A stretch of DNA of 64,000 nt from Eledone cirrhosa (GCA_964016885.1 OZ024743.1:50592001-50656000); one strand, 5' to 3'. Positions 15,530 to 50,636 are shown, counted from the first letter of the stretch. Numbers and translations are program-made. Notes: generated by a model from the sequence alone, not told the origin.

Positions 15530-15567
<38 letters not shown>

Positions 15568-15573
<6 letters not shown>

Positions 15574-16490
15574 AATTAGTATATTTACCAACATATGTAT
15601 ACAGATGCATACCTATGCTAGCAAATATATATGTTTTGTTTGTCTTAGTAACTTTGCGGTTCTATGCAAGGGGATGCAGAACAATTATATGAAAGACGTA
15701 AATAAGAAAGTTATGAAAATTGACTTACTTACTACAATTTTCACTCCAACTAATTAGTTTCTGTAAGGGAATAAATATGGTTACGGAGCGTTTCCACAGA
15801 GAAACCTTACGTCATCAGGTAGTCTATTCTCAGCTAAGCTTCCAGGCTATGCGAGGACACTGGGAACTTATATAAAAATAATTCAGTGGATGGAAAAAGT
15901 GAGCGGGGACTAAATTCCAAGACATTGAAAAATTCACTGCCTACTTGGTCAGTGGCAAATTCAAAAGAATCAATCACGTGACACTGAGGTTAATCAGTGA
16001 GGAGTGGGGTGCTATTAAGACAAGGGCCTAGCCACTACCATGAACCATAGCAGTAATTTCGGCAAGTTTTGCTCAACAAATAATTTGGAGATAATTATAA
16101 AGAATTAGTATATCTACCAACATATGTATACAGATGCATACCTATGTTAGCAAATATATATGTTTTGTCTTAGTAACTTTGCGGTTCTATGCAAGGGGAT
16201 GCAGAACAATTATATGAAAGACGTAAATAAGAAAGTTATGAAAATTGACTTACTTACTAAAATTTTCACTCCAACTAATTAGTTTCTGTAAGAGAATAAA
16301 TATGGTTACGGAGCGTATCCACAGATAAACCTTACGTCATTAGGGAGTCTATTCTCAGCTAAGCTTCCAGGCAATGCGAGGACACTGGGAACTTATATAA
16401 AAATAATTCAGTGGATGGAAAAAAGCGAGCGGGGACTAAATTCCAAGACATTGAAAAATTCACTGCCTACTTGGTCAGTGGCAAATTCAA
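15568..16490. repeat. Partial tandem duplication, ~529-bp period (pLTR-like)
   Basis: 15568-15963 is repeated at 16097-16490; degenerate CTGATGA...GAAA on the minus strand near 15785-15820. Confidence 0.8.
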
Positions 16491-16821
16491 GAAGAAGAAG
16501 AAGAAGAAGAAGAAGAAGAAGACGAAGAAGAAGAAGAATTTCTTTATTGGCCACAAGGGCTGACATCAAGAAAAACATCACAGACGGAACAGGACGGTAC
16601 GATGTGGGTTTTGTGCGTGTAAATATTTTTATTATTTATATAGGAAAAGAAAAAAGACATAAAACATATATATAAACAATAAAATGAAAATTGAAACAAT
16701 GAAAAATTCCCCAATAGGGGGGAAACCTCCGAGGGTTATTCGTGGCGAAAACCGCACAAAACACCACGGCCACCCTGACTACCAGGGCAAGCGCCCTCTC
16801 TCAATTTTTCCATCTCTCAAA

Positions 16822-19800
16822 CTACAGACGTATATTCAGAGTGGTCCCGTTCACTCGGACCATTCTCACTACATTCACCCACCTTTCAACAAACTTGCTA
16901 GAAAGCAGCACTTGCCTCTCCACCCTGATTTTCCTCTTCAAGTGAAACTTGAAAAAGTTAATCAGGGATTCGCCGAAGAGGAAAGTGTTTGTCTTTAATC
17001 CTTTTAACCTTGTCCACCACACAATCTCTTTCGCCATGGCCACCAGGCAGATGAAAACCGCCTGCCCTTCCTCCTCAAAGGAAGACGGCGAGACTATTTG
17101 CACAATGGACTCAGTCGACAACCGGATCAGTCCCACACGTGACAGCAACTGTTCGACATAGCTCCACAAGTCAGCAATGCTCGGGCACTGAACGAGTGCG
17201 TGCACAACGGTTTCGTCGCTATGCGCTCATCTCGGACAGGCTCGGCTGACGGCACTTCCGTGCCTGTAGAGCTTATCTCGAACCGGCAGCGCTCCCCGGT
17301 AGCACTGCCAGGCCAGGGATTTTTGGAAGTTATCCATAGGCCCCGGGCTGAAAGTTCTCCGGAAGAGAGCAAGCAGCTGATCTTCTTCGACGCCCAGGAT
17401 CTCTCCGAGAACGTCGTCGCTCTTCCCCTCCACTAGTCCTCTATAAAACGCCGAGGTGGATGTTCCACCGATACTGGTGCCCAACTGGGAGAGGGCAGTG
17501 AGGGCCTAGAGACATTCCATTTTCCAAGCGCTATCCCTCGGTCTTTTTCTGACCCAGGACTGCAGCTCCGTCAAGGAGACGAGCTGTGGGAAAATGTGCC
17601 TGGCGAACGGCGACCACACCCGTTCACCATCAAGGAAGCACCAGAGATGTCGCAGTCTCAGCGCATATTTGCGCATCATCAGCCATGGCATGCCCAGTCC
17701 TCCACGCAACGGGTGTTGACAGCAGATGGATCGTCTGACCATGGGAGCGCGTCCCTTCCACAAAAAGCGGAAGAGGAGGCGCTCCATTTTGGTGAGAGTT
17801 GGGCTGGAGCAAGGGACGACGGTGAGGTGGTAGCAGATGACGGATGCGATGTACGCATTCGCCACTTCCGCCCGGCCTTTCAGGGACAGCTTCCTCTCAG
17901 CCCATTTCTGGGTGAGGGAGGCCACCCTGCTCGTCACCTCGTTCCAGTTTTTCTCCATCTGGAGGTCCAGTCCGAACCAGACCCCGAGCAATTTAATCGG
18001 TCCGTCCGTCCAACGCCCCACGACGCTGTCGGATGGCATGAACTTGCCTCTCCAGGTGCTGAGCTGCAAGCCCACCGACTTTTCCTGGTTTATCTTTGCT
18101 CCTGTCACCGTTTCGTATTCCTTGAGATCGGTGCCGAGCATCTGGACGTGTCTCGTGCTCGACACCACCACGGTGACGTCGTCGACGTAGGTCGACTCGG
18201 ATTTCCCGCATCCTAGTTCGCGTGGGACGCCCTTCATCGCCCCCAGTTTGTGCAGTAACGGCTCGAGAGCCAATACGTACAAGAGGGACGAGAGGGGACA
18301 ATCCTGGCGGACTGAGCGCATGATGCTGAACGGCTGCGACAGGTGACCGTTCACCCTCACAACTGAGCAGATGTCGCTGTACATTGCTGCGATCCAACGC
18401 CTGAAAACGGGCCCGAAACCTGCTGCCTCGAGGACCGCCGCCAGGTACCGATGGTCGACCCTATCAAATGCTTTGGATTGATCCAAGTTGATCAGGGCCC
18501 CACCCTTGCCAGGTTCCTTAACCACCCTCTCTATGATGTATCGCATGAGGTGGAGGTTGTCGTGTATGGATCTGTCCGGAATGGCGCATGTCTGCGCCTC
18601 TCCCACCAGACCCTTTACGACAAGCGCCAACCTCGTTGCTAACACCTTGGCCAAAATCTTGAACTCTGCGTTTAGCAGAGTTATGGGCCTGAAATTATCA
18701 ATAACATCCCCCTTGTTCGAGTTTTTTCTCAGCAGCGCCACTCCTCCCGGCTCACAAAACTGGGAATGCTCCCGTTCTGCTGCCAGTTGCAGTAGACGTC
18801 TGCCAAGAGGTCACCAAACAAGTCTGGCATAAATGCATAAAGCTCGTAGGGCAGACCATCTAAACCTGGCGATTTACCTCTTGTGCAGCTAGCCATCGCT
18901 TCCCGTATTTCACAGGCTGTTATTGGCTTTTCGCAACACTGTGCTGCGGTCGTCGAGAGCCGAGGCAGTCCGTCGAGGTATGCACTGAAGTCCATGTCCC
19001 GATCCGGGCCACCGCCGCTCCCGAACAGTTCAGAAAAGTGCTGCTGAAAAGCTTCACACATCCGCTCGGGTTTTAGCATCACGCACCCGTTTTGGTCAGA
19101 CAAAGACCGAATTGTGGCTTTATTGCCACGTCGCGCCTCTGCCACCCGGGCCCATTGGACGGCTTTTGTCCCCTCGTGTTTCAGAGCACGCGCTCTAGCT
19201 CTGACAACGCAGCCTTCGTGTTTTGCGTTGGAGAATTGGTCGAGTGCCAATCTCGCCGCAAGCACGTCGGTTGCGATGCCTGTCCTAAACGCCTCTTCTA
19301 GCTTTCTGACTAGCTCTCCCTCTACTCTATTTTCCTCTATCACTACTCCTTTGCTAAACCTAATCGACTCTACTTTAATTGCCCTTTTCAGGGCGAACCA
19401 CCACCTATTGTTGACGACGGCTCCCGTCAACGCCCGCTTAACTAATACGCTAATCCGGTCTCTGTAGGCCTTGCGCGCCGGGAAAGACGCGTTCAGCTTC
19501 CAGTAACCAAGCCCTTGTCTATGAAGTCTGTCTATGTCGATCTCACAGATCACAAATGTGTGGTCTGTGTAGTCGACTATTTTAAATTGTGGACAACTTA
19601 TACTAGCCTTATCTAGTTCCCTGCAGAATACCCTATCTAGATACGATCTGGATGACCCGATGCGGTTTGTCCATGTCTACATTGGCACATTCGGGGGATC
19701 CAGTCGATACCTGTCAGACAGTTCAAAACGTCTGAGCAGGTTGGTGAGGCTCTTGCACCCTCCTCCCCTATCCACTAGCCCCACACAATCCCAGCGTGCA

Positions 19801-20240
19801 TCCAAGATACCGTTCCAGTCGCCCAAAAGCACTAAAGAGCGGGACGTTCCAAGAAAGGTCTCTAGACGTCTGAAGAAATCTGGCCGTCCTGCGCCTGTTG
19901 GGGCGTAGACGGCTACTAGCCTGAAAGCATTGCCTTCGCTGCCGGTCACGTCCAGCACCACCGACTTACCTTCTGGGTCCAGGAAGATGGCCCGTATCGC
20001 GAGTTCCAAGCCTCTCCGAAAAAGGACGGCAACCCCTCCCCCCGATCCTGGACGGCTGGGAGATGCGTATACATCGTAGCCGCCGAAGATCGGTGCGAAG
20101 GCCCGTGCCTCGGAGATTCTGGTTTCACTGATGGCCACCACATCTATGTTTAGTGACCTGAGGTCATTGAGCAGGTGACCCTGCTTCTAAGATGACTCCA
20201 GGCCACGTGCATTTATACTGCCTATTCTGAGTACAGCCAT
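16822..20240 (-). pseudogene. Tx1 ORF2 (APE endonuclease, RT, C-terminal Cys/His finger), disrupted
   Basis: ISETR, VYAP, GDWNG, GYWKLN, KSPGLDGLP, FRPITLLN, DQSKAFDRV, YVDD, CPR..HA..C, split over several ORF fragments. Confidence 0.92.
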
Positions 20241-20272
20241 GTTGGATGAGAAACGAGGCAAATGAGAAAGGG

Positions 20273-22302
20273 TCACTTACCTTGTTCGTGTGGTGAAGGG
20301 ACAGTAGAACCGTCCCTTTCGCTGGTAATGGGTGTTTCCAAGAGGATATCAGCGTATATCCTCTTGGTAACCGACCCTCTGAAGTCTCCAACTGCGTTGG
20401 GAAATTTTTGTTTTAAAGGTTTGTATTGTTCTAATGAGATTTCGATGATGCTTATGTTTGTCGGGAGAGTTCTTGGTGTTGGTGGGGTGTAGTAATTTTT
20501 TTCCGTGATGTCTGTGTGCTGCTTTATATATTTTATGAGTTCTTTTTTTGCTATTTTTATGGCTGTGTACTTTTGGGGAGGAGGGGTGATTTTGTTGCCG
20601 TTTTCTTCTTGCTGCTGTTTGGTGTTTGCGTTGTTGGTGTTTGTGGTGCTGTTGCTGCAAGTTTCCTTGCTGGCTTTACCCCTCTTTGTATGCCTTCGCT
20701 TTTGGAGGGTGAATCTAAGGGTTTTTTCCTTTTTTGTTTTTTGTGGCAGACTGTTTGCCACGTCACTCCCGCCTCAAACTCCATGTCGGATTCTGTGGCG
20801 TCTGGGAGGGGTATGTGCTCCACGGCTGTTGGTGGTGGTAGTGGAGCCCTCTTCGGCAATGTTGTTGCTGGTGTAGCTATTTCAAATGTAGCTATTGGTG
20901 TTGCCGCTACTGATGATGCTGCTTTAGTTATCCGTGGCCTTGGTACGGGTGCTACGGACGTTGCCCTCCTACTCACCGTGGAAGGGGCTTCTTCGTTTGT
21001 TGCCTGTCCTGCTCTTGGTAGCAGCGGACCAGGTATTGGAAGGAGGGGGGCCCTCTTCGGTGTCATCTGCGGGCAAAATGTCCTGAGGTGACCTTTCGAC
21101 CCACAGAGATAACATTTTGGCCGTCTTAGTTCTACACTTATAGGGAGTTGGAGTCCTTCCTCAAAGTCTATGATATCGGGGATAGCCTCGATACATTCCT
21201 GGTCAGTTTGTATAAGCATTTGCATGCCTATACCTGACCAGTTCTCTCTCCCTATTTTTTCTACTTGCAGCATGGTCGCCCTGTTCTCAATTCCAGCAAG
21301 GACAGACGCGGCCAGCTAAGGTATGGGCACGTCGGGTGGGACCTGGGTCACTTTGACCCTCACAATTTTCTGCCCGCAGTAGAAGGGCACCAAGACTAAC
21401 TCCTCACTCTTTAGGGTTTCCAAAGAGTGAGACTTTGCTTCCTGGGGGGTGGCGAAAAGTACGTCTACTGTGGCGTACTTTCTGCCTCGGGTGATGTGGG
21501 TTTTGCGTGCCCAGACGCACCCCAAGGCCTTTTGGATTTGAGCCTCCGTGTCTCTCTCCACTCGATGTAAGATTTTGCTTACGGTGCGGTAAGTCACCGT
21601 TCGTAGCTGCTGATCCTTGAAAAAATCGGGTGGAGGTTTCAGGGAAACTCTATTTGCGCTTCTTGTCACCATGGCCCTTGCGACTGCCATCTCCTCCTCT
21701 GTGACTAACACTGTCTCGATATTTCGGGCGACACCTGCAAAAGAAGTGGTCCCTTTTTCAGCAGCACCACTATTGCTGCCGCTACTGGTCTTACTGGTGG
21801 TGCTGAGGTCGCTATTACAGGTATCGATGTCATTGTTGTTCTTTTCGCTGGTACAGTTGTTGGTGTTGTTTTCGTTGATACTGTTGCTGCTGTTACTGTT
21901 ATTGTGGCTGTTGTTATTATTGTTGTTTTTGTTGATACTGTTCCTACTATTATTGTTGTTGTGGCTGTTGTTATTGTCATTGTTATTGTCGTTCTCGACC
22001 TTACCGCTGTTATTTTTGTTATTGTCGTTCTCGACCTTACCGCTGTTATTTTTGTTATTGTCGTTCTCGACTTTACCGCTGTTATTTTTGGTGTTGTTGT
22101 TGGTGATGTTGTTGGTGTTATTGTTGGTGTTGTTTGTGTTAGAAATATTTGTTAATTTTAAATCTGTAACAATCTTTTTTTCCTTTGTAATATTTTCGTT
22201 TATATTTACCTCCGCTGGAACGCTGTCTTGTTGACATGTTCATAAAGTCTCCCTCTCTCTGTGTTGTCTGACAGCGCTCTCTCTCTTTTTTGTGTTATCC
22301 AT
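20273..22302 (-). pseudogene. Tx1 ORF1 (gag-like, CCHC knuckle), disrupted
   Basis: CAACATGG start at 22302; CYLCGSKGHLRTFC knuckle; in-frame stops near 22240 and 21316 and one frameshift. Confidence 0.8.
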
Positions 22303-22529
22303 GTTGAAATTTTTCAAAAGATATTTTTACACAAATACGAATACGACACCCCGTAAAGGGGTGCCGTATTATTTACTAGTGAACCCCTGTATTAGGTGGG
22401 TCATTTCTAAACTTTTATCAAATGTAAAACGGTTTAGAACGGTTGAAAAAGAGGTAAAACGTTGAAAAAGACTGGAGGCGATAAGAAGCGTGGCTTCACC
22501 AACCAATAATAATAATAATAATGTGTTGT

Positions 22530-22996
22530 ATGCAGTGGGATACAGAGAGCGGGAGGGAATTTGTTGGTTTAGTGAGAGAGCGGGAATTAACAGAGTGAAA
22601 GAGAGTGAGTTATGTAGTGTAATATAGAGAGGGGAGAGAATTTTGTGGTCTAGTGAAAGAGCGGGAATTAAGAGATTGAAAGAGAGTGAGATATGTAGTG
22701 GAATATAGAGAGAGGGAAGAAAATTTCGTGGTCTAGTGAGAGAGGGGGTTTTGAGAAAGAGTGAAGTATGTTAAGGTATGTAATGGTATAGAGTGAGGGC
22801 GAGAGAGTTTGTTGGTCTAGTGAGAGAGGGGGGAATTGTGAGATAGAGTGAGGTGTATAGTGATATATAGAGAGGGGAAAATAATTTGTTGGTTTAGAGA
22901 AAGAGGGGGAATTAAGTGCGTGGAATAAAGGGAGTTATGTAGCGAGTTATGTAGAAAGGAGAATAGAGTTTGTTGGTTTAATGAGAGAGGGGGAAT

Positions 22997-23063
<67 letters not shown>

Positions 23064-23200
23064 GGTGTAGAGTGATATATAGAGAGGGGAAGAGAATTTG
23101 TTTGTTTAGAGAGAGAGGGGCAATTAAGTGCGTGGAAGAGAGGTAGTTATGTAATGGAATATAAAGGGAGGGGGAGAATTCGGTGGTTTAGTAAGAGAGT
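22530..23200. repeat. Degenerate GA-rich minisatellite between the two Tx1 elements
   Basis: Repeating TTTGTTGGTTTAGTGAGAGAGGGGGAATT...TATATAGAGAGGGG units. Confidence 0.75.
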
Positions 23201-23441
23201 AATTTCTATTTATTTGCCACCAGGGCATCAAAGATTGGGACAACTACAAAAGAGGGAGTTTACATACATTTAAAAAGACGTGTAAAAAACATATAACAAA
23301 TTAAATTTAACAATCGATATCCTCAATAGGGAGGGGCGTTGACATGGGTCGCACACACCCCCGAAAAAATGTGCAACCCTCCTCTTCAGGAGCACAAAGA
23401 GCGGGTGCTTCCTTCCTCTTCTCATTCTTCTCCTCTCTCAC

Positions 23442-26400
23442 CTACAGGCTGATATAGAGAGAAGGCCCATTCACTCGGGCCATTCTCGCTACTTTCACCC
23501 ACCTTTCATAAAACTTGCTGGGGTAGAGCACCTCTCTCTCCATTCTGATCCTTCTTCTAAAGTGGTACCTGAAAAAAAGGACCCGTTGTTGGCCGGAGAG
23601 AAAGGTGTCTGACCTCAGCCCTTTCAACCTTGTCCACCATACAACCTCTTTCGCCATAGCTATCACACAGAGGAAAACCGCCTCTCCTTCGTTTTTGAAA
23701 GGGGAAGGCGGTTTGATCGTGACAATGTTCTCGGTGGTCAACCGGATTGGTCCCACCCGCGACAGTAGTCGTTCCACATAGCCCCACAGGTCAGCAACGC
23801 CCGGGCAGTGTACGAATGCGTGTGCGACGGTTTTCTCTTCACGCACGCATCTCGGACAGATCTTCTTCGAGGGGTCCCTACCCGGGCGCCCGTGTCTGTA
23901 GAGCTTGTCCCGAACGGGTAGAGCTCCTCGGTAACATTGCCAAGCCAGGGACTTTTGGAAGTTGTCCATCGGCCCCGGGCCAAACGTCCTACCGAACAGA
24001 CTGGCTAGCTCATCTTCCTCCATGCCCAGAGCCTCTCCGAGAGCGTCGTCGCACTTACTGCGCACCAACCCTCTATAGAATGTTGAGGTTGAGTCTCCAC
24101 TGATTGCCGGATCCGCTTGCCAGAGGGCCGTGAGCGCCTGGGCACATTCAATGTGCAAGTCGCCCACTTTTCTCGGTCTTTGCTTGACCCAGGATTGCAG
24201 TTCGGTGAGTGAGACGAGTCTCGGAAAGGCTCGCCTCACAAACAAGGCCCACACCGGCTGACCGGTGAGGAATACCTGGAGGTGCCGTAGCCTTAATGCG
24301 TGTCTACGCATTTCAGCCACGGCATCTCCAGCCCTCCGTTCGAAGGGTGTTGACAGCAGATGGATCTTCTCACCAAAGGAGCCCGCTTCTTCCAAAGAAA
24401 TCGGAAGAGCGCGCGCTCCATTTTGGCGAGTGTTTTCTCTGGGCAAGGCACGACGGTCAAGCGGTAGTAGATGACGGAGGCTATATAAGCGTTTGCCACC
24501 TCCGCTCGACCTTTCTGGGATAGTTTGCACTCGGCCCACTTCTGGGCGAGTTTAAACACCTTGCCCGTTACCTCGTCCCAGTTTTTCTCCACCTGGAGGT
24601 CCGGTCCGAACCAGATCCCGAGCAGCTTCACCGGTCCCTCCGTCCAGCGTCCGACGATGCCGTCGGAGGGCATCGGTTTGCCCCTCCACGTCCCGAGTTG
24701 CAAACCGACGGACTTGTCCCGGTTCAGCTTGGCTCCTGTGAACGTTTCATATTCCTCCAGTAAGGTGCCGATCTGCCCGATTTCCGAGGCGCACGACACC
24801 ATTACTGTCACGTCATCGGCGTAGGCCGACAACGCTTTCCACAATCCCGGTTCCAAGGGGATGCCCTGCAACAGCTCATGCTTCCGCAGTAGTGTCTCGA
24901 GAGCCAGCACATACAGAAGGGAGGAGAGAGGGCATCCCTGTCGAAGGGATCGCGTGATTTGGAACGGCTCCGAGAGGTAGCCGTTCACCTTGACCCTCGA
25001 GCAGATGTTGCTGCTGTGCATTGCAGCAATCCAGCCCCTGAAAACGGGTCTGAAGCCTGCCGCCGCGAGCACCGCATCCAGGTACCGACGGTCGACCCTA
25101 TCGAACGCCTTAGATTGATCCAAGTTGATCAGGGCTCCACCAAAGCCGGGTTCGTTCCCTACGCTCTCTACGATGTATCGCATGAGGTGGAGGTTGTCGT
25201 GTATGGACCTGGACGGGATTGCGCATGTCTGCGCTTCTCCCACCAGGTTCCCGACGACAAGTGCCAACCTCTTCGCTAACACCTTGGCCAAAATCTTTAA
25301 CTCTGTGTTTAGCAGAATTATGGGCCTGAAGTTATCTATGTCATCCCCCTTGTTCTCGTCCTTCCTCACCAGGGTCACTACGCTCTTGGTCACAGAACTG
25401 GGAATTCTCCCGTTCTGTTGCCAGTTGCAGTAGACCGCCTCGAGGAGACCGGAGAACAAGCTCGGCATCGCTACATAAAGTTCGTATGGTAGACCATCGA
25501 GACCCGGAGATTTGCGTTTGCCGCATTGGCTCAGCGCTTCCCCTATTTCAGCGGCTGAAATCGGCCTCTCGCAGGACTTCGCCTCCCCGTCCGAGAGCCG
25601 CGCCAGACCGTCGAGGTATGGACCGAAATCCATGGCCCCACCCGGCCCGCCGCCCCTCCCGAACAGTCGTGCAAAGCGCCGTTGAAAGGCCGCGCTCATC
25701 CGCTCAGGTTCAAGGATCACGCGTCCATCCTGGTCTTTCAAAGACCGAATCGTGGACTTGTTTCCACTTTTTGCCTCTGTCACTCGGGCCCAGCTAACAG
25801 CTTTGGCTCCCTCGTTACCCAGAGCACGTATTTTACTCCTGAAAACGCAGCCCTCGTACTTCGCATCAAAGAACTGGTCTAGGGCCGTTCTTGACGCCAG
25901 CACGCCGGCCACGTTGCCACTCCTAATCGCCTCTTCTACTCTATCTCTTAATTCCCTTTCAGTTCTATTCCTATCTGATGCTAATTCCTGACTAAAACCT
26001 ATCAATTCTATTCTAATTTCTCTCTTGAGAGAGCCCCACCACCTGCTGTTGACAATTGCCCCCGTCAACCGCTGCTTAACTAGTGTGCTAATCCGCTTAC
26101 TGTAAGCTTTGTTTGTCGGTAAAGACAAGTTTAGCTTCCAGTAACCGGGTCCCTGTCTATGAGTTCTATCAAGGTTGACCACTCCGGTCACTAACTTGTG
26201 ATCCGAATAGTCAACCATGAACATTCGTGGACAGCTTAATATGTCCCTATCCTTATTTCTAACTAGGAACCTATCTAGGTACGACCTAGATGTTCCGCTA
26301 TGATTAGTCCACGTCTACAGTGGCACAGTCGATATCTATCGGCCAGATCAAATCGGCCTATTAATCGTTTGAGGCTGTTACACCCTCCTCTATCGGGACA

Positions 26401-26864
26401 TGCCCTACATAATCCCAACGTGCATCCAGGATGCCATTCCAGTCCCCCACTAAAAGCAAGGAGCGAGACGTTCCCAGGAAATTCTCCAGGCGTCGGAAGA
26501 AGTCCGGTCGCGGTGTCCCAGATGGGGCATACGCTGCCACTAGCCTGAAAGCTCCACCTTCACTACTGCCGACGTCTAAAACCACCAGTCGACCCTCCGG
26601 GTCCAGGTGTACCTTCTGTGTGGCAAGACCCAGGTATTTTCGCAGCAGAACGACAACCCCACCCCCACCCCTCGGCTGACAGAGAGATGCGTAGATCTCA
26701 AAGTCGTCGAAGATGGGGGCCAGTTGGCGCTCGCTGCTGATCCTGGACTCGCAAATAACCATTACATTCACTCTGTGCGACCTGAGGTCATTTAAGAGTT
26801 TGCCCTGTTTCCAGGACATCCCCAGGCCGCGTGCATTCACACATCCAACTCTTATATTGGCCAT
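23442..26864 (-). pseudogene. Tx1 ORF2 (APE, RT, zinc finger), frameshifted
   Basis: NARGL, ICESR, YAP, GDWNG, YSDH, RQGCPLS, YADD, CPRC..HA..C. Confidence 0.93.
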
Positions 26865-26905
26865 GTTGGTGCTGAAGAGTTAAAAGGAAGTGGAAAGGAA
26901 ATTAC

Positions 26906-28748
26906 TTACCTCTTCGTCTCCTGGGGACCAGGCTGCACAATTTCCATGGGGGTGTTGGAAGGGTTGTTTGGTGGGGTGGTGGTTTGTGGTGGGGTGAGGA
27001 CATCAGTGTGTGGTGGGATTGGGGTGTTTGGTGGGGTGTGGGTGTCTGGTGTGGGGGTGGGGAAACATCTCAATAGGACGCTGTTAAGTGGTTTGGTGCA
27101 GTTGGTCCCCACATGCATTGGATGGTTCTTTTTCAGAGTTACATAGATTTCCGTTGGGACCCTAATCATCATTAGGTGCGGTTTGTCCGCTGCGTAGGTG
27201 AAAGTGATCCCTTCGGTTTCCACCGAAGGGTTATTGTCTATTGCTTTCATCAAAGTTTTAATGTTTTTGTTAATGTATGTATAGAGTTTTTGTTGTGTTG
27301 TGTTTGTTTTTGTTTTTGTTTGTTGTTCTTGTGCGTGTTTACGTTTTGTAGTATGTGTTATGTTTTCGGGAGGAGTGGGTTTTTTTGTTTGTGATGTTTG
27401 TTCTGTTTGTGCTGGTGGTTGTGTGTTTGTTGCATTTTTGTTAATGTGGCGCCTTTTTTTTTCACCTGTTGAAAGGGTTCTCCCTCGTCGACACTGGGTG
27501 ACGTTGATACGGAGTTTTCTTCCGTGTTGTTGGGGAGGGGTATATTTTGGGGTTTTGTTGTGGTTGCTTTTGTATCTGTTTTAGGTGGGGAGGGGTTGGG
27601 TGGAACAGTGTCTTGTGTTGTTATTTTTTCGTGTTGTTGTAGTTGTTGTTGTTGTTGTGGTGGTGGTGGTGGTGGTGGTGGTGGTGGTGGTGGTGGTGGT
27701 GGTGGTGGTGGTGGTGGTGGTGGTGGTTGTGTTGTTGTGTTCGGGGTTGGCAGAAGAGCCTTTTTTTTTACTCGTTAATTGACGACAGGCAGCCCTCATG
27801 TGACCCCTGCTTAAGCAGTGGTAACATGACGGCCGCCTTCCCTCCACTGAAATGTTTATATAAGTTAGCCCGTCCAGAGGCACGCGTTGTGGGGTATTCG
27901 CTATTCGTTCTGGGCTCATTTGCACCAGAACTTCTACGCTGATCCCACCAAATACACCTCCGGGGGACTTTCCTACTGAAATTATCCTGTCTTCATCAAA
28001 GTCAATGAATCCACATAGTATCCACCAAATATTTACATTTGGTGTGATACTCATAATTTTTTATTCTTTGTGTTCTTTTTCCCCTGTATGTGGGGAAAAA
28101 GGTGAAGCGGGGGGACACAATGGGTGATACAGAGTATGTTTGTGCTGTTGGCTGGTTATTCATTAGCACCGAAATGCTACCAAACAGTTTTCCTTTTTGG
28201 ATGAAGGTTATGTCCTTCATTGCATCTTTTAGAACCAGCACATTTTCATTTTGTGATAATTGAGCTGGTTTTCTTGTTTCGTTAGATATTGTCCTGAAAA
28301 CCACAGTTTTCAGAACAGCTTCTCTACGTAATACCTGTGGAGAATTGATGCTAAAAGCACCGTTTTCGCCAAAAGTCATGAATTGTTTTGCGTCTTGTAG
28401 TAGTTGTTTAGCATTTGTTATGTCAATTGGCGTGTATAGTTCGTTTATTTTTACAGTCTGTGCGAACGTTGTTTTGGTGTTGTTGTCTTTTTTGTTGCTG
28501 TTGTTGTTGTCACTGTTGTTGATATTGTTCATGTTTTCCTTGGTGTTGTTATTGTTACAGTTGTTGGTTGTGGTGTTATTGTCATTGTTCTTGTTGTTGC
28601 GGGTTTGGTTCCGTGGTTTCAATTTTCAACGTTTTTCGATAATGCGAGGGGGGGAAGGCTGCAAGCTTTGTACTCCTACCTTCCCTCCACCACTTATCTT
28701 AGTGAACGTGGTACTCACGACAGTGTGCGAGGTTGAAATGGCATCCAT
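26906..28748 (-). pseudogene. Tx1 ORF1 with CCHC knuckle, frameshifted
   Basis: CAACAATGG start at 28748; RRPSCYHCLSRGHMRAAC; Asn/Thr low-complexity tracts. Confidence 0.8.
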
Positions 28749-29855: not shown

Positions 29856-32210
29856 ATAATAATAAATTTGAAGACTAAAATCCAAAGAGGGCTCGATAAG
29901 GATAAATATATATCAAATATATAAGAACCGTAGAGAAAATATTTATTAAAATAACAGATTAAAGTTTAAACAAAGAATCGCTGCTTTCACCCTTAACGGG
30001 ATCTTCTGAAACTAACAAAGTCAATCTGTGAACGCAGAAGTGAGTATTTCAAAAAACGTTGCAACCGGAGGAAGACAGGAAGACGATACTTTGGTTCGTG
30101 GAAACGTTCCCTGGCAAAGAACGGGAAAAAACGAATATAATACGTCATTATTTGGAGCGGTGAAAAACAATTACACGCAAAGACAAAACCACGTTTATGC
30201 TCTACGGTTCTTATATATTTGATATATATTTATCCTTATCGAGCCCTCTTTGGATTTTAGTCTTCAAATTTATTATTATTACTATTTGGCTCCCTCGGTT
30301 GAGCACTTCATTGACTTATATTCATCATGCAGAAACAACATCTGAATATTTTTACAAAGAACATACCCGTACCAAGCAGGAAAACATACCTAAAACTCCT
30401 GATACAGAAAACAGACGCGTTCATTAAAAGGTTTCGTTGGCGTGCCTTTTATTTTGATAATCAGGGAAAAGCAGACAACAAACAGGATAAATTTGGGTTT
30501 AAAACTTATAATAACCCTCCGAGTATCCCAGCATTGCTACCCTTCGAAAATGATGTCTTGGAACTCATACGGAGTATCAAATTTCGGAATAGGAGCAATT
30601 CCTTCCAGCAAGACCTGAAGAATAGAATTCGTTCTATTAAGGATTCTAATGCCATGCATGTCCATTCCGACAAAACTGGCAACCTATATCAAGTGGAGCG
30701 CAGTACCTACCATCAACTACTACATAATGCTGCGACTAAGGATTACCGTAAAACTAATCGGTGCGTCATTAATCAAATCAACGATGCTGGGTTTAAAATC
30801 ACCTCCTATCTCAACATCCTGGACCGGACCGAACCTCTGGACTCTATTTCTCCCCACTTTACCCTGAGGATCACAAATCCAATTTTCCGAACAACCCCTC
30901 TATTCGGCTTATTAACCCTACGAAGTCCGATTTAGGTAGACTTAGTAAAAGGATTCTTGATAGAATTATACCTGAAATTAGAAGTTTGGCCCCTCTTGCA
31001 CTGTGGAACAATTCTTTCGCGGTGATTGACTGGTTCAACGGCATATGTAACAAGGAACATTGCCGTTTTATCCAATTCGACATCAATAATTACTACTCCT
31101 CCATCACTTTACCACTTCTCCTTAGAGCTATCAATTTTGCTAAACACTCACAGCGGTTAAAGATTTCGAAGTCGATGTCATCCTCAATGCCCGTAAGTCG
31201 GTGATTAATTTCGACGACTCTATTTAGATTAAAAAATCTAATAGTACCCCATTCGACGTGAGTATGGGCGCCAGCGATTCTACGGAGGTGACTGATCTTA
31301 TCGACCTTTTCCTTCTTTTCTCTATCAAGGACGAATTCCCCAACGAGGGCAGTGGTTTGTACCGTGATGATGGTCTTTTGACCATGACTAAGTGCGGCCC
31401 ACGTGCTTGCGACAGGTTCAGAAAACTCACAGCCTTCTTTAAAGGCTTCTTCAACCTCTCTATACAGGTTGAGGCCAACCTCTCGGTCGTTAATTACCTC
31501 GACGTTACCCTCAATTTATCGAATGGCTTGTATTACCCGTATAGAAAGCCGAATGATACGCTTAATTGCATAAGTAAGCATTTTAACCATCCTGCCATCA
31601 TAACCAAGAACCTGGTAAGAAACGTTTCTTTGAGGCTTTCCCGTCTAACGAGCATATTTTCAACGACCATTCCACATATTACAATGAAGCTCTTGCTCGG
31701 AGTGGATTTGTCGATAAGGTAGCATATACAGAGTACGAGAATAGATCTAGAAGAAATAGATCCCGACGCATTATATGGTATAACCCACCATATAATATGG
31801 AGGTGGCCACACCATTAGCTAAGATCTTTCTCTCCCTTATTACGAAGCATTTTGCCTCTACACATAAATATAGTAACATTTTTAATAGAAATACTATCAA
31901 AATTTCTTACTCTACGACTCCTAGCCTTGCACATAACATCACAGCTTCAAATTTAGCTGAACTACCTAGCCGTAGGAACACGTGCAACCCTGTAGTTAGT
32001 ACTAACTATAATTGTAGGAATCGGGTTGACTGCCCCCTATCCGGGAAATGCCTCTCTAGTAACATTGTCTACAAATGTAAGGTTGAAACACCCACGTCCC
32101 GTAGGGCCTACATAGGGTTAACCGCCAATAGATTCAAGCAGCGTCTTTACATGCATACCCATTCTTTTCGTTACCCTCTAAGAAGGAATATGACGTCACT
32201 TTCAGCTTAA
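29852..32210 (+). mobile_element. Penelope-like element (Naiad-type) with inverted 5' pLTR piece, 3'-truncated
   Basis: 84-bp inverted repeat (29852-29935 / 30200-30283) upstream of the ORF; starts at a (TA)n tract. Confidence 0.88.
30327..32210 (+). pseudogene. PLE RT-GIY-YIG ORF, frameshifted
   Basis: KNIPVP, RFRWRAF, SDKTGN, QFDINNYY, MGASD, GLYRDDGL, YLDVT, WYNPPY, NCRNRVDCPLSGKCL, IVYKC..AYIG..FKQR. Confidence 0.9.
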
Positions 32211-34317: not shown

Positions 34318-34387
<70 letters not shown>

Positions 34388-36175
34388 ATTTCTTTATTAG
34401 CCACAAGGGCAAAAGAAGGGGACAAATACAAATGGGGAGTTTACATAGAGGTATATGAAAATAAAACTATTAATAAAATAACAAATAACAATTGAAATCC
34501 CCAATAGGGGGAGGCGTTACACAGGGGTTGTACACACCCCGAAAAAATGTACAACCCTCATCTCCAGGAGCACCAAGAGTGAGTACTCCCTTCCTCTCTT
34601 CCTCTTTTTCCTCAACCGACAGGTTTATATAGAGAGAAGGCCGAACCACTCGAGCCATCTTTGCCACATTCACCCACCTTTTATAAAATTTGCTGGGGTA
34701 CAGCACCTCTCTCTCCATCCTGATTCTTCTTCCAAAATGATATTTGAAAAAACGAATCAGTTGCTTGCCGGAGAGAAAGGTGTCTTTTAACCTCGTCCAC
34801 CATATAACCTCTTTCACCATAGCGATAACACATAGGAAAACCGCCTGTCCCTCGTTTTTGAAAGAGAGTGGCGGTTTGATCATGACAATGGACTCGGTGG
34901 TCAACTGGATTGGTCCCACCCGCGAAATAGTCGTTCTACATAGCCCCACAGGTCGGTAACGCTCGGGCAGTGTACAAATGCGTGCGCGACGGTTTCCTCG
35001 TCGCGCACGCATCTCAGACAGATCTTTTTCGAAGGGTCCCTGCCCGGGCGTCCGTGTCTGTAGAGCTTGTCTCGAACTGGTAGAGCTCCTCGGTAGCACT
35101 GCCAGGCCAGGGACTTTTGGAAATTGTCCATTGGTCCCGGGCGGAAAGTCCTACCGAACAGACTAGCCAGTTCGTCCTCCTCTACGCCTAGAGTTTCTCC
35201 GAGCGCGTCGTCGTACTTGCTGCGGACCAACCCTCTATAGAATGTCGAAGTGGAGTCTCCACTGACCGCCGGGTCCGTGAGCGCCTGAGCACATTCGATT
35301 TGCCAGTCGCCCATTTTCCTCGGTCTTTGCTTGACTCAGGACTGCAGCTCGGTCAGCGAGACGAGTCGGAGGAAGGCTCGCCTCACGCACGAGGCCCACA
35401 CCGGTTGTCCGGTGAGGAATACGTGGAGGTGCCGCAGCCTGAGCGCGCGTTTGCGCATCGTCAGCCACGGTATCCCCAGCCCTCCGTTTGAGGGTGTTGG
35501 CAGCAGATGGATCTTCTCACCAAAGGAGCCCGTTTCTTCCAAAGGAATTGGAAGAGCGCGTGCTCCATTTTGTTGAGCGTTTTGGCTGGACAAGGCACGA
35601 CGGTCAAGTGGTAGTAGATGACGGACGCTATAAAAGTGTTCGCCACCTCCGCTCGACCTTTCAAGGATAGTTTGCACTCGGCCCACTTCTGGGTGAGCGC
35701 AAACACCTTGGCCGTCACCTCGTTCCAGTTCTTCTCCACCTGGAGGTCCAGACCAAACCAGACCCCGAGCAGCTTTACCGGTCCTGCGGTCCAGCGATCG
35801 ACGACACCATCGGAAAGGATCGGTTTTCCTATCCACGTTCCGAGTTGCAAACCGACGGATTTGTCCCGGTTCAGCTTCGCTCCTGTGAACCTTTCGTATT
35901 CCTCCAGTAAGGTGCCGACCTCCCCGATTTGCGAGGTGCTTGACACCATTATGGTTATGTCGTCGGCGTAGGCCCACGCCACTTTTCGCAGTTCCGGTTC
36001 CAAAGGGATGCCCTGCAATAGCTCCAACTTCCGCAGTAGTGGCTCGAGAGTCAGTACGTACAGAAGGGAGGGGAGAGGGCATCGTAGTCGGATGGATCGC
36101 GTGATATGGAACGGCTCCGAGAGGTAGCCTTTCACCTTGACCCTTGAGAAGATGTTGCTGCTGTACATTGCAGCA
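34388..36175 (-). mobile_element. 5'-truncated Tx1 copy (related to family 2) inserted in (GATA)n
   Basis: RT YADD through C-terminal finger and 3'UTR; GATA repeats on both flanks. Confidence 0.92.
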
Positions 36176-39388: not shown

Positions 39389-39494
39389 TCATGGGACTAA
39401 CATTTGTTGAAGTGGCACGGGAGTATGACTGCCTCCACTTGTTGGTCGAGAGGACCGAAGTGAGTGTTTGTTAACTACATTGTTGTGGTCGCTG

Positions 39495-41275
39495 GACAAA
39501 TTGAACTGGACAGCCGAGGGCAGACAAATAGAACTGGACAGCCGGGGGCAGACAAATTGAACTGGACAGCCGAGGGTAGACAAATTGAACTGGACAGCCG
39601 AGGGCAGACAAATTGAACTGGACAGCCGAGGGCAGACAAATAGAACTGGGCAGCCGGGGGCAGACAAATTGAACTGGACAGCCGAGGGCAGACAAATTGA
39701 ACTGGGCAGCCGGGGGCAGACAAATTGAACTGGACAGCCGAGGGCAGACAAATTGAACTGGACACCGAGGGCAGACAAATTGAACTGGACACCGAGGGCA
39801 GACAAATTGAACTGGACACCGAGGGCAGACAAATTGAACTGGACACCGAGGGCAGGCAAATTGAACTGGACACCGAGGGCAGACAAATTGAACTGGACAC
39901 CGAGGGCAGACAAATTGAACTGGACACCAAGGGCAGACAAATTGAACTGGACACCGAGGGCAGACAAATTGAACTGGACACCGAGGGCAGACAAATTGAA
40001 CTGGACAGCCGGGGGCAGACAAATTGAACTGGACACCGAGGGCAGACAAATAGAACTGGGCAGCCGGGGGCAGACAAATTGAACTGGACAGCCGAGGGTA
40101 GACAAATTGAACTGGACAGCCGAGGGCAGACAAATTGAACTGGACAGCTGAGGGCAGACAAATTGAACTGGACAGCCGAGGCAGACAAATTGAACTGGAC
40201 AGCTGGGGGCAGACAAATTGAACTGGACACCGAGGGCAGACAAATTGAACTGGACACCGAGGGCAGACAAATTGAACTGGACAGCCGAGGGCAGACAAAT
40301 TGAACTGGACAGCCGGGGGCAGACAAATTGAACTGGACACCGAGGGTAGACAAATTGAACTGGACAGCCGAGGGCAGACAAATTGAACTGGACAGCCGAG
40401 GGCAGACAAATTGAACTGGACAGCCGGGGGCAGACAAATTGAACTGGACAGCCGGGGGCAGACAAATAGAACTGGGCAGCCGGGGGCAGACAAATTGAAC
40501 TGGACAGCCGAGGGCAGACAAATTGAACTGGACAGCCGGGGGCAGACAAATTGAACTGGACAGCCGGGGGCAGACAAATAGAACTGGGCAGCCGGGGGCA
40601 GACAAATTGAACTGGACAGCCGAGGGCAGACAAATTGAACTGGACAGCCGAGGGCAGACAAATAGAACTGGGCAGCCGGGGGCAGACAAATTGAACTGGA
40701 CAGCCGAGGGCAGACAAATAGAACTGGGCAGCCGGGGGCAGACAAATTGAACTGGACAGCCGAGGGTAGACAAATTGAACTGGACAGCCGAGGGCAGACA
40801 AATTGAACTGGACAGCTGAGGGCAGACAAATTGAACTGGACAGCCGAGGCAGACAAATTGAACTGGACAGCTGGGGGCAGACAAATTGAACTGGACAGCC
40901 GAGGGTAGACAAATTGAACTGGACAGCCGAGGGCAGACAAATTGAACTGGACAGCTGGGGGCAGACAAATTGAACTGGACAGCCGAGGGTAGACAAATTG
41001 AACTGGACAGCCGGGGCAGACAAATTGAACTGGACAGCTGGGGGCAGACAAATTGAACTGGACAGCCGGGGCAGACAAATTGAACTGGACAGGCGAGGGC
41101 AGACAAATTGAACTGGACAGCCGAGGGTAGACAAATTGAACTGGACAGCCGAGGGCAGACAAATTGAACTGGACAGCTGAGGGTAGACAAATTGAACTGG
41201 ACAGCCGAGGGTAGACAAACTGAACTGGACGGCCGGAGGCAGACAAATTAAACTGGACAGCCGACGACAGACAAA
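39495..41275. repeat. 28-bp minisatellite (GACAAATTGAACTGGACAGCCGAGGGCA) with 26/27-bp variants
   Basis: Direct periodicity with no unique spacers. Confidence 0.97.
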
Positions 41276-41644
41276 TTTTATGAGGATAGCGTTATCTCCT
41301 TACAACCTGTAAAAGACCTCTAGAATGTCATTTATCTAGGGGAACCTGGGGCCAAAGGTCTACATGTGTGGTGGTATTGTCCTACCTAGCCAACCTGGGA
41401 GCAAAAGTTCAAGTCAGTCTGATCGCTACAAGAGTTAAACCTGACGGGCTTATAATATCTAGACAATTGTGTATTGTGAATGTTGTGTGTGTTAAACCTG
41501 GCGATTATATAACAGCTATATATTTGTGTGTGTTGTGTTAAACCTAACGGGTGTATATATATGTGTGTATAAATGCTATATGTGTGTTAAATCTGACTGA
41601 TGTATAATATCTATGTATTTGTTTGTATTGTGTTAAAACTAATG

Positions 41645-43520
41645 GGGCTCCTCCGAAGGATCATTAGAGCAAAGTTACTCGATAGGGTGTATAACTCGGA
41701 GATCAGAAAATTGCTCTAGTTTGAATAGCCATTTCTCTGAAAGATCACAGCTCCGATACTACAGACATGTTGTTAGAATGTCTAATGAAAGATACTACAG
41801 GCATGTTGTTAGAATGTCTAATGAAAGATACTACAGACATGTTGTTAGAATGTCTAATGAAAGATACTACAGACATGTTATTAGAATGTCTAATGAAAGA
41901 TACTACAGACATGTTGTTAGAATGTCTAATGAAAGATACTACAGATATGTTGTTAGAATGTCTAATGAAAGATACTACAGACATGTTGTTAGAATGTCTA
42001 ATGAAAGATACTACAGACATGTTGTTAGAATGTCTAATGAAAGATACTACAGACATGTTAGAATGTCTAATGAAAGATACTACAGACATGTTGTTAGAAT
42101 GTTTAATGAAAGATACTACAGACATGTTGTTAGAATGTCTAATGAAAGATACTACAGACATGTTGTTAGAATGTTTAATGAAAGATACTACAGACATGTT
42201 GTTAGAATGTCTAATGAAAGATACTACAGACATGTGGTTAGAATGTCAAATGAAAGATACTACAGACATCTGGTTAGAATGTCAAATGAAAGATACTACA
42301 GACATCTGGTTAGAATGTCTAATGAAAGATACTACAGACATGTTGTTAGAATGTCTAATGAAAGATACTACAGACATGTTGTTAGAATGTCTAATGAAAG
42401 ATACTACAGACATGTTGTTAGAATGTGAAATGAAAGATATTACAGACATGTGGTTATAATGTCTAATGAAAGATACTACAGACATGTTGTTAGAATGTCT
42501 AATGAAAGATATTACAGACATGTGGTTATAATGTCTAATGAAAGATACTACAGACATGTTGTTAGAATGTCTAATGAAAGATATTACAGACATGTGGTTA
42601 TAATGTCTAATGAAAGATACTACAGACATGTTGTTAGAATGTCTAATGAAAGATATTACAGACATGTGGTTATAATGTCTAATGAAAGATACTACAGACA
42701 TGTTGTTAGAATGTCTAATGAAAGATATTACAGACATGTGGTTATAATGTCTAATGAAAGATACAACAGACATGTTGTTAGAATGTCTAATGAAAGATAC
42801 TACAGACATGTGGTTAGAATGTCAAATGAAAGATACTACAGACATCTGGTTAGAATGTCAAATGAAAGATACTACAGACATCTGGTTAGAATGTCTAATG
42901 AAAGATATTACAGACATGTGGTTATAATGTCTAATGAAAGATACTACAGACATGTTGTTAGAATGTCTAATGAAAGATATTACAGACATGTGGTTATAAT
43001 GTCTAATGAAAGATATTACAGACATGTTGTTAGAATGTCTAATGAAAGATACTACAGACATGTGGTTAGAATGTCTAATGAAAGATACTACAGACATGTG
43101 GTTAGAATGTCTAATGAAAGATACTACAGACATGTGGTTATAATGTCTAATGAAAGATACTACAGACATGTGGTTAGAATGTCTAATGAAAGATACTACA
43201 GACATGTTGTTAGAATGTCTAATGAAAGATACTACAGACATGTGGTTATAATGTCTAATGAAAGATATTACAGACATGTGGTTAGAATGTCTAATGAAAG
43301 ATACTACAGACATGTGGTTATAATGTCTAATGAAAGATACTACAGACATGTGGTTAGAATGTCTAATGAAAGATACTACAGACATGTTGTTAGAATGTCT
43401 AATGAAAGATACTACAGACATGTTGTTAGAATGTCTAATGAAAGATACTACAGACATGTGGTTATAATGTCTAATGAAAGAATCACTAAGCTAACGAGCA
43501 GAAGACCCAGAGGTTGACCA
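41645..43520 (+). mobile_element. RTE-clade LINE RT C-terminal fragment containing a 36-bp array
   Basis: Flanks translate as LRRII..LLDRVYNSEIRKLL..ERSQLRYYRHVVRM ... RRPRG*P, matching the RTE motif LRW.GHV.RM...RPRGRP. Confidence 0.75.
41754..43480. repeat. 36-bp minisatellite, ~48 copies
   Basis: Unit ACAGACATGTTGTTAGAATGTCTAATGAAAGATACT. Confidence 0.97.
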
Positions 43521-48601: not shown

Positions 48602-49677
48602 CATATATATAAAACTGAAATTGTCTCTCTGTGTGTGTGTCCTAATTTTTGCAAAGTCTATACAAATCTACATTTCTACTCCGATTTACTTCAAACTTGT
48701 ATTTATATGTTCCTTGCAGTCTAAAGATATTAACAGCAGCTTTTATTGTTCAATTTTTTGTTGTTAAAGGGGTGTTAGGCACCGGTTATCGATCTCTCTC
48801 CCTCTTTCTTAGTCTGTCTTTTTAGACGACTCGCTGTTTCCCTTCGGTTGCAACGTTTTTCGAAATATTTACTTCTGCGTTCACAGATTGATTGTTTTAG
48901 TTTCAGAAGATCCCGTTGAGGGTGAAAGCAGCGATTCTTTGCTTAAACTTTAATCTGTTATTTCAATATATATATATATATATATATATTGAAATTTCCG
49001 TTGAAAACAGAAAAGGTCATAGAAGTGAAGAGTGCTCTATGTAAGTACCAGAGCAAAATTAAATGTATAAAAATCAATACAATATAATTACCTCATTACC
49101 AGAGGTTTCCCGAATGAGGCGAATACGAAAGAAACGTCTTCATTCGTTCGTCAGACGAGGCAATATAAAACATGGCTAAATACTTGGAAAGTCTCATCAA
49201 GAAAAACAAAAAAAATATAGACGAATGAATTACAATATGAAATATATAAAAATCTTTCAAGAAATATAGTTAGGTGTGTGTATATGTATGTATATACGCT
49301 CACAGATGTGCATATATGTGTATGCACAAATGTATACGTATAGTGAAAAAGTGTGCGTAAATATATATTTTAGGGCAAATGTATCTGTGTGTCTGTAAAC
49401 TACAGACAGACATGATGTGGTTTTCTGTTTGGCAGGTACACGGAAAAAATAGGGTAATAGATACATCATAAGAATATAAAGGCACGCGTATAAACACACC
49501 CACGGACACGTACACTTATATGCGGAAGTAAAAGAGGTAAGGGAGTGTAATAATTAAAAGAAAGTATCGTTCTCGATATATTTATAAAAATGGAACAATA
49601 ATTTAGAAAGAAAAAATTAAAGAAAAGAAGACAAACAAGGTACACGCATACACACACACGTATATCTACAAGAAACG

Positions 49678-50636
49678 ATGTAGATTTCCTAGATATAAAC
49701 CTAGATTTGCCTACTGCCTCTTATAAACCATACCATAAACCTAATGAAAACTTAAAATATATAAATAAAGGCTCTTGCCATCCTCCTATAGTTTTTAAAA
49801 ACCTTATCCCTAATATTAGCCGTAGGATCTCCACCCTCTCTTCCTCAGAAGCTATTTTTAATAAGGCATCCCCCTACTATAATAAAGCCCTCCAAAATAG
49901 CGGTTTTAGCGAACCGATTAAATACATACCCAACTATACTAACTCTATTAAACATAAAAACAGGAAAAGAAAAATAATCTGGTTCACACCACCCTACTCT
50001 CTAGCAGTTAAAACTAATGTAGGCACAAAATTCCTAGAGCTCCTAGATAAACATTTCCCTAGAACACATAGATACTATAAGATCTTTAACAGAAACTGTG
50101 TCAAAATTCGCTATTCCTGCGATCCCCCTATTAAGTCATATATCATCAACAAAAAATCACCTAGAGAAAATCAAAATTGCTCCTGTAGAATCAAAAGTGA
50201 ATGCTCATTACAAGGTAAATGCAACACCAAAGCCATTGTATATGCGGCTAAAGTGACAACCATCAGCAACAACCATCCAGCCACCAGTGAACGATATGTG
50301 GGTATGACGCAAGACAAATTCAAAACGCGTTATTACTCACATGTCGCATCCTTTCGACATCCAGAAAAAAGATTTACAACAGCTCTGGTTAGCAGAATTT
50401 GGGATTTGAAAGACCAAGGCATCCAATATAAATTGGATTGGTCAATTTTGAACCAATCTAAAGAATATGCTAGAGGAACAAGAAAATGCACGCTCTGCAT
50501 AAATGAAAAATATTGGATCTTGCAAAATCTTAAATCACCAAAGACGGAAATTTTCACCAGTTGCCCACACATGAAATCACACCTGCTTTCCAGCTCATAT
50601 AAACTTAACACACTTTCAGATACTTATCCTCCATAA
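49678..50636 (+). CDS. PLE C-terminal ORF fragment (RT thumb, Cys linker, GIY-YIG endonuclease)
   Basis: FLDINL, YKPYHKPN, HPP, IIWFTPPYS, CSCRIKSECSLQGKC, IVYAA..RYVG..FKTRY, CTLCINEK, CPH; open frame but 5'-truncated. Confidence 0.88.

Follow-up and report, generated by a model that had tools for sequence, protein, structure and literature searches.

In a clade of L1/Tx1 non-LTR retrotransposons the junction between ORF1 and ORF2 carries the motif AG|GTAAGT which, judged from its conservation, likely is kept by selection as a true 5′ splice site, and the putative use of this clade-conserved site is probably regulated. We encountered it in Eledone cirrhosa, in a stretch of 64,000 nucleotides (GCA_964016885.1 OZ024743.1:50592001-50656000; hereafter the window, with positions counted from its first letter). 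The GT at the junction is rather probably a real U1 site of some kind. We tentatively propose, as its best explanation, that it acts as a regulated 5′ splice site whose partner is a distant acceptor located at the ORF2 end or beyond, which would give an ORF1-only mRNA. An earlier sequence-only reading of the same DNA had suggested an RNA-level signal at this place as well as a micro-intron fusing ORF1 to ORF2; the idea of an RNA signal for the donor holds up, the micro-intron fusion in family 1 does not.

The window elements and their ORF1/ORF2 junctions

Two decayed, nearly full-length LINEs lie in tandem on the minus strand of the window, accompanied by a truncated third copy:

about 22500-16535, minus strand: element 1 (family 1), decayed LINE
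20273..22302, minus strand: degraded ORF1 of element 1, with Asn-rich N-terminus, weak zinc knuckle, one internal stop and frameshifts
16822..20240, minus strand: degraded ORF2 of element 1, with APE endonuclease and RT-like part
16510..16821, minus strand: 3′ UTR of element 1, with AATAAA at about 16548, terminating in (TTC)n
about 28900-23200, minus strand: element 2 (family 2), decayed LINE
23200..23460, minus strand: ORF2 end and 3′ UTR of element 2, with TAG at 23444-23442
about 36200-34380: element 3, third copy, truncated at its 5′ end

These are L1/Tx1 non-LTR retrotransposons: an ORF2 with APE endonuclease at the N-terminus, RT, and a zinc-binding part at the C-terminus follows an upstream ORF1, and a self-comparison of the window revealed no terminal repeats (LTRs). 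The label Tx1, as opposed to L1 proper, was given in the sequence-only reading and agrees with what we take to be the Tx1 domain layout. ORF2 of element 2 contains PF00078, with PF03372 (E = 3.5e-5) and PF13966 both just under the cut-off; in ORF2 of element 1, PF03372 lies above the cut-off and the RT region was found by tblastn, and the zf-CCHC of ORF1 (E = 0.0045) falls below the cut-off. The closest named protein matches come from Octopus bimaculoides and Argonauta hians. AATAAA is present at the 3′ ends of elements 1 and 2. Element 2 shares the orientation of element 1 and lies ~700 nt upstream of it, and at their 3′ ends the three elements pass into (TTC)n (16510-16540), TC-rich repeats (22500-23200) and (TCTA)n (34320-34390). 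Elsewhere, the window contains long minisatellite arrays and, immediately downstream of element 1, a 400-nt direct duplication (39389-41299, 41643-43517 and 15567-16496), as well as two decayed elements on the plus strand (30315-32210 and 49602-50636), whose ORFs presumably resemble Penelope-type RT with GIY-YIG.

At the two junctions the following features can be distinguished:

20275..20282, minus strand: family-1 donor AG|GTAAGT, phase 1, score 8.5 of 9
20275-20273, minus strand: family-1 ORF1 stop TGA (…EQGK*), overlapping the donor
20256..20282, minus strand: predicted hairpin masking the donor, with 5′ arm 20282-20273, 7-nt loop 20272-20266 and 3′ arm 20265-20256
20246..20248, minus strand: CAT in place of the wanted acceptor CAG; no A>C at a share of at least 10% in run X1 (see below)
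20237..20245, minus strand: family-1 CCAACATGG, ORF2 start context, with ATG 20240-20238
26904..26911, minus strand: family-2 donor AG|GTAAGT, phase 2, containing the ORF1 stop TAA 26908-26906
26872..26903, minus strand: family-2 pyrimidine tract ending in CAG (26874-26872), the second-best acceptor score in element 2
26861..26869, minus strand: family-2 CCAACATGG, ORF2 start

As described in the sequence-only reading, AG|GTAAGT precedes the ORF2 ATG by 40 nt in family 1 (CAA G|GT AAG TGA, with the G of GT at 20280 and the ATG at 20240) and by 45 nt in family 2 (AAG AG|G TAA GT, with G at 26909 and ATG at 26864), and its phase relative to ORF1 differs, being 1 in family 1 and 2 in family 2. 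The remark that the two ORF1s are barely alignable was also borne out, their C-termini being identical at only 23 of 89 positions (E = 5.9); the ORF2 DNA identity of the two elements amounts to 72%. Splice sites were ranked by a simple U1-match score, a crude measure without training on octopus introns, according to which the junction donor is the strongest site of element 2 (a score of at least 8 in 1 of 239 24-nt windows) and tied strongest in element 1 (2 of 248). A second predicted hairpin, of 10 pairs, is located in the last ORF1 codons immediately upstream of the family-1 donor (20294-20319, minus strand), and the Asn-rich start of ORF1 contains three 30-nt repeats (21980-22080, minus strand), each with a phase-1 donor-like site GGTAA(A/G)G.

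The three parts of the cassette proposed to be shared by the two families behave differently: the donor is conserved, the pyrimidine tract pairs with it beyond chance in family 1 alone (see below), and CCAACATGG occurs at chance level, its 2 matches in the window being reached by 21 of 100 shuffles. We interpret CAACATGG/CCAACATGG as the context of a start codon, since TTCAACATGG opens ORF1 of element 1 and CAACATGG is thus common to ORF1 and ORF2 starts; this reading draws on the general start-codon context consensus. The form (C)AACATG is also common to the loose ends of sister families at the junction.

The junction in sister and distant elements

RT-motif scans rendered 80 metagenome loci and 52 genome-bin loci. 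The closest of them, L081-L117, match the ORF2 query at 43-44% identity; they are intact and arranged in tandem on animal-like contigs of one bin, G001, and in an RT tree of 109 rows, calculated by a quick method without named Tx1 references, the G001 clade is sister to the window pair with a support of 98, ~1.2 amino-acid changes per site away. Scans of viral contigs and the first metagenome scan revealed no relative, the G001 contigs match the window in microsatellites only, and Rfam gave no match in the window or in six sister loci. The bin is labelled as an Arenicella genome and contains animal DNA, namely head-to-tail arrays of intact Tx1-like elements of 6.2-6.9 kb (L081-L117, L133-L168) with up to ~10 units, comprising several subfamilies with unrelated 5′ UTRs. 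Two other tandem units, each containing two tRNA genes, were noted: one measures 2.19 kb (L169), the other 8.16 kb (L152), and the latter also has RT/integrase frames that resemble those of LTR retrotransposons.

In the 37 G001 stretches examined, GGTAAGT was found upstream of ORF2 in 65 of 68 distinct starts. Here AAG|GTAAGT is located one base past the ORF1 stop TAA (two in one copy), in non-coding DNA, and codons therefore cannot explain it; the donor lies 13 nt before the ATG, in a spacer of 14 nt without any AG after it, which leaves no room for an intron. This third lineage, whose ORF2 is 44% identical, bears out the earlier claim that the donor is conserved at the level of nucleotides and independently of codon phase. 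The other three starts belong to a separate in-clade lineage (L081/L147), which has a TAATG overlap and no donor. In the 13 donor-bearing units scored, the junction site reaches 8.5 throughout and ranks top in 11, being beaten in 2 by one ORF1 site. Invariance within the sister clade is weak evidence, because 407 of 496 fourfold sites (82%) are invariant as well.

The count of distant Tx1/L1 junctions was restricted to loci that have an ORF1 of at least 150 codons and whose overlap was called correctly. A score of at least 8 was found in 1 of these 31 (L027; control windows, 2 of 2,666), and the donor in L027 reads AGG TAA GT, where an Arg-stop supplies most of the motif. GTAAGT thus accompanies the ORF1 stop within the clade, in 3 of 4 lineages, but neither in L081/L147 nor among the distant junctions apart from this single case. 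The donor is therefore a feature of the clade and not of Tx1 as a whole.

Local acceptors, far acceptors and a predicted hairpin

The hypothetical cuts of the sequence-only reading are indeed in frame, 35 nt ending in CAT in family 1 and 38 nt ending in CAG in family 2, and the AG is, as it stated, missing from this family-1 copy (CAT at 20248-20246). Its suggestion that the family-1 consensus might have the acceptor G was examined by aligning three contig sets and one raw RAD-seq run to 20050-20550 at 80% likeness. The best-matching run, X1 (organism A), which may come from the source of the window itself, contributed 3,095 aligned contigs, of which 61-62 cross the spacer, contigs tending to drop rare variants. 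A minus-strand G at 20246 stays below 10% in X1, because 20327 is the only position of that run with A>C at a share of at least 10%, and this is the outcome by which the reading itself proposed to judge the micro-intron refuted. Among the 40 of 178 variants listed, none lies inside the family-1 donor (20275..20282); position 20246 is outside these 40, as are A>C positions in X4 (2), X5 (1) and X11 (4), which confines the deduction to X1. Across the spacer, X1 has no indel at a share of at least 10%, and a 35-nt skip, the joint expected of an intron-less copy, is absent among the 13 joints listed. Five of six loose ends of sister families (three in X1, one in X4, one in X5) run from pyrimidines into (C)AACATG without an AG; in the sixth (X4, 20216) an AG precedes CAACATG, and a seventh (X4, 20213) has a tract and TAG ahead of a different ATG context. 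An acceptor AG before CCAACATG, as a spliceosomal micro-intron would need, is not found for family 1 in run X1, and neither the micro-intron nor the resulting ORF1-ORF2 fusion is supported for this family.

Protein searches gave no matches for the family-1 ORF1 C-terminus; for longer proteins with the ORF2 N-terminus there were 5 and 1 matches, none of them ORF1-extended, in a weak search in which candidates were crowded out. In 150 of 2,031 representatives, no splice was seen in the upstream-extended proteins P0136, P0113, P0050 and P0148. The former two are named as predicted or hypothetical gene models, the latter two look like read-through of degraded spacers, and P0050 (…QGEQILPFLSLTRM…) fits a GGTGAG donor with a complementary arm, by back-translation only. 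The O. bimaculoides gene model P0136 (XP_014773926.1), named 'kinesin-related protein 9-like', reads …NNNANMAVLRFG and joins the N-terminus of a Tx1 ORF2 to an Asn-rich stretch and a kinesin-like part, a chimera that is probably an annotation artefact; its A-N-M needs no splice, because one family in X5 has a genomic G before CCAACATG and no AG.

The 'pyrimidine tract' of family 1 is predicted to fold back on the donor, with a pairing probability of 0.99 and a stability reached by 1 of 1,000 spacer shuffles, although attention was drawn to it only post hoc. Its 9-pair core contains two of the variants listed (138 of the 178 being outside the listing), and both keep the pairing, 20262 changing G.U to G-C (95% of the depth in X1, 86% in X5) and 20259 changing U.G to U-A (17% in X1, 75% in X5). 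Position 20272, in the loop, is variable. Against the hairpin, outer pairs are lost with the majority bases at 20256 and 20285. In family 2 the pairing of tract and donor is no better than in shuffles (415 of 1,000 as stable), in the sister subfamilies downstream pairing is inconsistent (0.01-0.98), and a hairpin was therefore rejected for both.

Donor-like sites also occur elsewhere in the sister clade. All 61 anchor-matched copies have GTRAGT right after the ORF2 end (34 GTAAGT and 27 GTGAGT, both U1-compatible), as has L081/L147, compared with none of 29 outgroup ORF2 ends; in the window elements this site is not clearly present. In all 61 (L086:2459-2530 and equivalents) a run of pyrimidines comes next, and then a YAG whose end is 33-40 nt away from the GT, in size and layout like the ORF1/ORF2 cassette of the window. 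The sister 3′ UTR has acceptor-like sites near +50 and near +250, and the more distant of these is present in 53 of 61 copies. The 5′ UTR stretch examined contains GTAAGT or GTAAGA in 12 of 14 units, most of which have an acceptor-like site before the ORF1 ATG. Donor/acceptor pairs that could bound a 5′ UTR intron were noted in the sister clade (~180-280 nt; L086:3200-3472 and equivalents) and in element 2 (~130 nt; 28891-28764, minus strand); such a pair is not evident in element 1.

Far acceptors in the window were sought at these positions:

16824-16822, minus strand: ORF2 stop TAG of element 1, one candidate far acceptor
first exon bases 23448, 23441 and 23243, minus strand: candidate far acceptors of element 2

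These candidates score 6.7-9.6, while the best internal sites reach 11-12. At neither of the homologous places does element 3 have the AG, and no acceptor common to all three window elements was found: the weak point of the far-acceptor reading is that the acceptor is not conserved across the three decayed copies. Joining the donor to the ORF2 stop TAG would lead to a stop after one codon in both window elements (TAG|TT TGA vs TAG|G TGA), but TCG replaces this TAG in element 3 and in 7 of 61 sister copies, for which reason less weight is given to the idea of a phase-compensated acceptor at this place. ORF1-only copies were not seen among 65 ORF1 ends in G001, nor were copies missing any donor/acceptor-bounded segment among these and 61 ORF2 ends.

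A strong donor at most 5 nt from the ORF1 stop in three lineages, without a local acceptor in the sister clade or, as judged from run X1, in family 1, fits ORF2 as one long intron. ORF2 would be removed as a whole, rendering an ORF1-only mRNA as copia does for gag, and the unspliced RNA would supply ORF2 as well as the template for copying. In family 1, the predicted fold of the spacer may limit the access of U1, so that part of the RNA stays unspliced. With the splice junction at the stop codon, ORF1p would be nearly unchanged and nonsense-mediated decay, which follows a 50-55 nt rule, could be escaped. ORF2 may be translated from the unspliced RNA via re-initiation at the CAACATGG context, and the whole arrangement may serve to make more ORF1p than ORF2p. 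The ratio of these proteins is generally held to be set at translation in LINEs.

The main rival to this far-acceptor reading is the docking of U1 without productive splicing, which would protect or hold the full-length RNA, by suppressing premature polyadenylation or by way of export, and would involve the sites in the 5′ UTR and at the ORF2 end likewise. We consider it doubtful. An acceptor is not required for it, each of the three non-coding parts of the sister clade has donor-like sites, and U1 has this second role in EVD, as described in PMC5580714; however, none of the 14 sister units has an AATAAA or ATTAAA in the 3.9 kb that follow the ORF1 stop, nor does element 2 for 3.7 kb, and with almost no poly(A) signal there is little for U1 to suppress (degraded element 1 has such signals at +901 and +1156). 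Moreover, the closeness of the site to the stop codon is left unexplained. That tandem stops, the hairpin and a strong start context tune the re-initiation of ORF2, the donor match being incidental, seems unlikely. GTAAGTRA does contain two stops in different frames, and its TAA shares the frame of ORF2 both in the sister clade, 12 nt ahead of the ATG, and in family 1, where the distance is 39 nt; the human L1 spacer also has two in-frame stops according to PMC5860796, and L081 has TAATG, as SART1 (PMC5972666). Yet this explanation accounts for 3 of the 7 conserved letters only, the family-2 TAA is outside the ORF2 frame, and GGTAAGT does not change in sequence as a hairpin would be free to do. 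As the family-1 hairpin includes the stop codon, a terminating ribosome should also melt it.

It is quite unlikely that the motif reflects neutral coincidence or inheritance, Lys/Arg-stop ends of ORF1 giving AG-TAA by coding alone. Coding would account for a large part of the site in family 2 and for L027, the only such case in the outgroup, and one in-clade lineage is without the motif, but family 1 (GGT AAG TGA) and the sister clade, with its motif after the stop, remain uncovered, and the background of the independent test is ~1-3 in 270 windows per lineage. A DNA-level motif resembling a donor by chance, such as a site bound by a transcription factor or part of an internal or antisense promoter, has a precedent in the human L1 5′ UTR donor, proposed to persist inside a RUNX3 site (PMC5860796); against it stand the restriction of GGTAAGT to the sense strand (antisense 0 in 14 units, once in two window elements) and the freedom of A/G at +3 of the 3′ UTR sites, which matches U1 pairing, making this very unlikely. 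The micro-intron of 35-38 nt that removes the ORF1 stop and fuses ORF1 to ORF2 is now tenable only for family 2, whose junction is known from one copy, and we regard it as very unlikely. Family 2 has a real 38-nt GT…CAG, in frame and with a good tract, and both the cassettes after ORF2 in the sister clade and the sequence of P0136 can be cited in its favour; against it speak, besides the family-1 results, the short distance of the sister-clade donor from the ATG, the predicted nature of P0136, and a length below the usual minimum of 50-90 nt (PMC13644364), for which the sections of PMC11649378 available to us give no mollusc figure. Furthermore, under cis preference a fusion-making RNA would be copied without its intron (PMC5860796). 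Very improbable, too, is a clade of spliced LINEs with donors after each ORF, in which the 33-40 nt donor-tract-AG cassettes would be real micro-introns below the usual animal minimum, family 2 would make an ORF1-ORF2 fusion, and unspliced RNA would still be copied.

Comparison with known systems

The closest likeness is found in copia, EVD and BARE1, where a conserved U1-type donor ends the structural gene; as described for copia/Ty1-Copia, splicing generates an mRNA for the structural protein only (gag subgenomic RNA), unspliced RNA provides the enzymes, and U1 has a second role in blocking early termination (PMC5580714). By its sequence, the window clade appears to share this trait of a U1-type donor conserved at the end of the structural gene. 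However, copia and its relatives are LTR elements with one ORF, for which splicing was shown (PMC5580714), whereas the window element is a LINE with two ORFs, the first of them ending in a stop codon of its own, and its splicing is putative. Human L1, likewise a LINE, has kept splice sites in its sense RNA over a long time, from which SpIREs arise, and has its ORF2 after a short stop-containing spacer, but the SpIRE donor lies in the 5′ UTR and splicing is inhibitory, gives dead-end products and is described as harmful (PMC5860796). In the window clade, by contrast, three lineages have the donor at the ORF1 stop, where it seems to be under selection as a signal in the RNA.

Attenuation of a retroviral 5′ splice site by RNA structure is known from the HIV-1 SD hairpin. 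At the 5′ splice site of MLV, too, a stem-loop limits the access of U1 (PMC2794156), and the same effect in family 1 would leave part of the RNA unspliced; unlike these retroviral structures, the family-1 fold is predicted, significant only in that family, and has its partner arm downstream in the spacer. The bicistronic layout is shared with the termination-reinitiation systems of L1 and SART1, L081/L147 having a SART1-like TAATG, but the sections of PMC5972666 available to us describe no splice donor for them. The Tx1 elements Kibi and Koshi have the same two ORFs with APE endonuclease and RT (PMC4494074, PMC3812793). They target microsatellites, inserting specifically into (TC)n or (TTC)n; the 3′ flanks in the window are (TTC)n for element 1 and TC-rich for element 2, but (TCTA)n for element 3. 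In O. vulgaris, 13 recently active L1-Tx1 families were reported (PMC13282606).

Among the matches listed from the open-access PMC and bioRxiv literature, none describes a conserved donor where ORF1 of a LINE has its stop. If the far-acceptor reading is true, such a donor would offer a direct route to ORF1-only derivatives, of which HAL1-type elements are an example. A hairpin-gated donor at the ORF1 stop would then mean that a non-LTR element has independently reached the solution of copia and the retroviruses.
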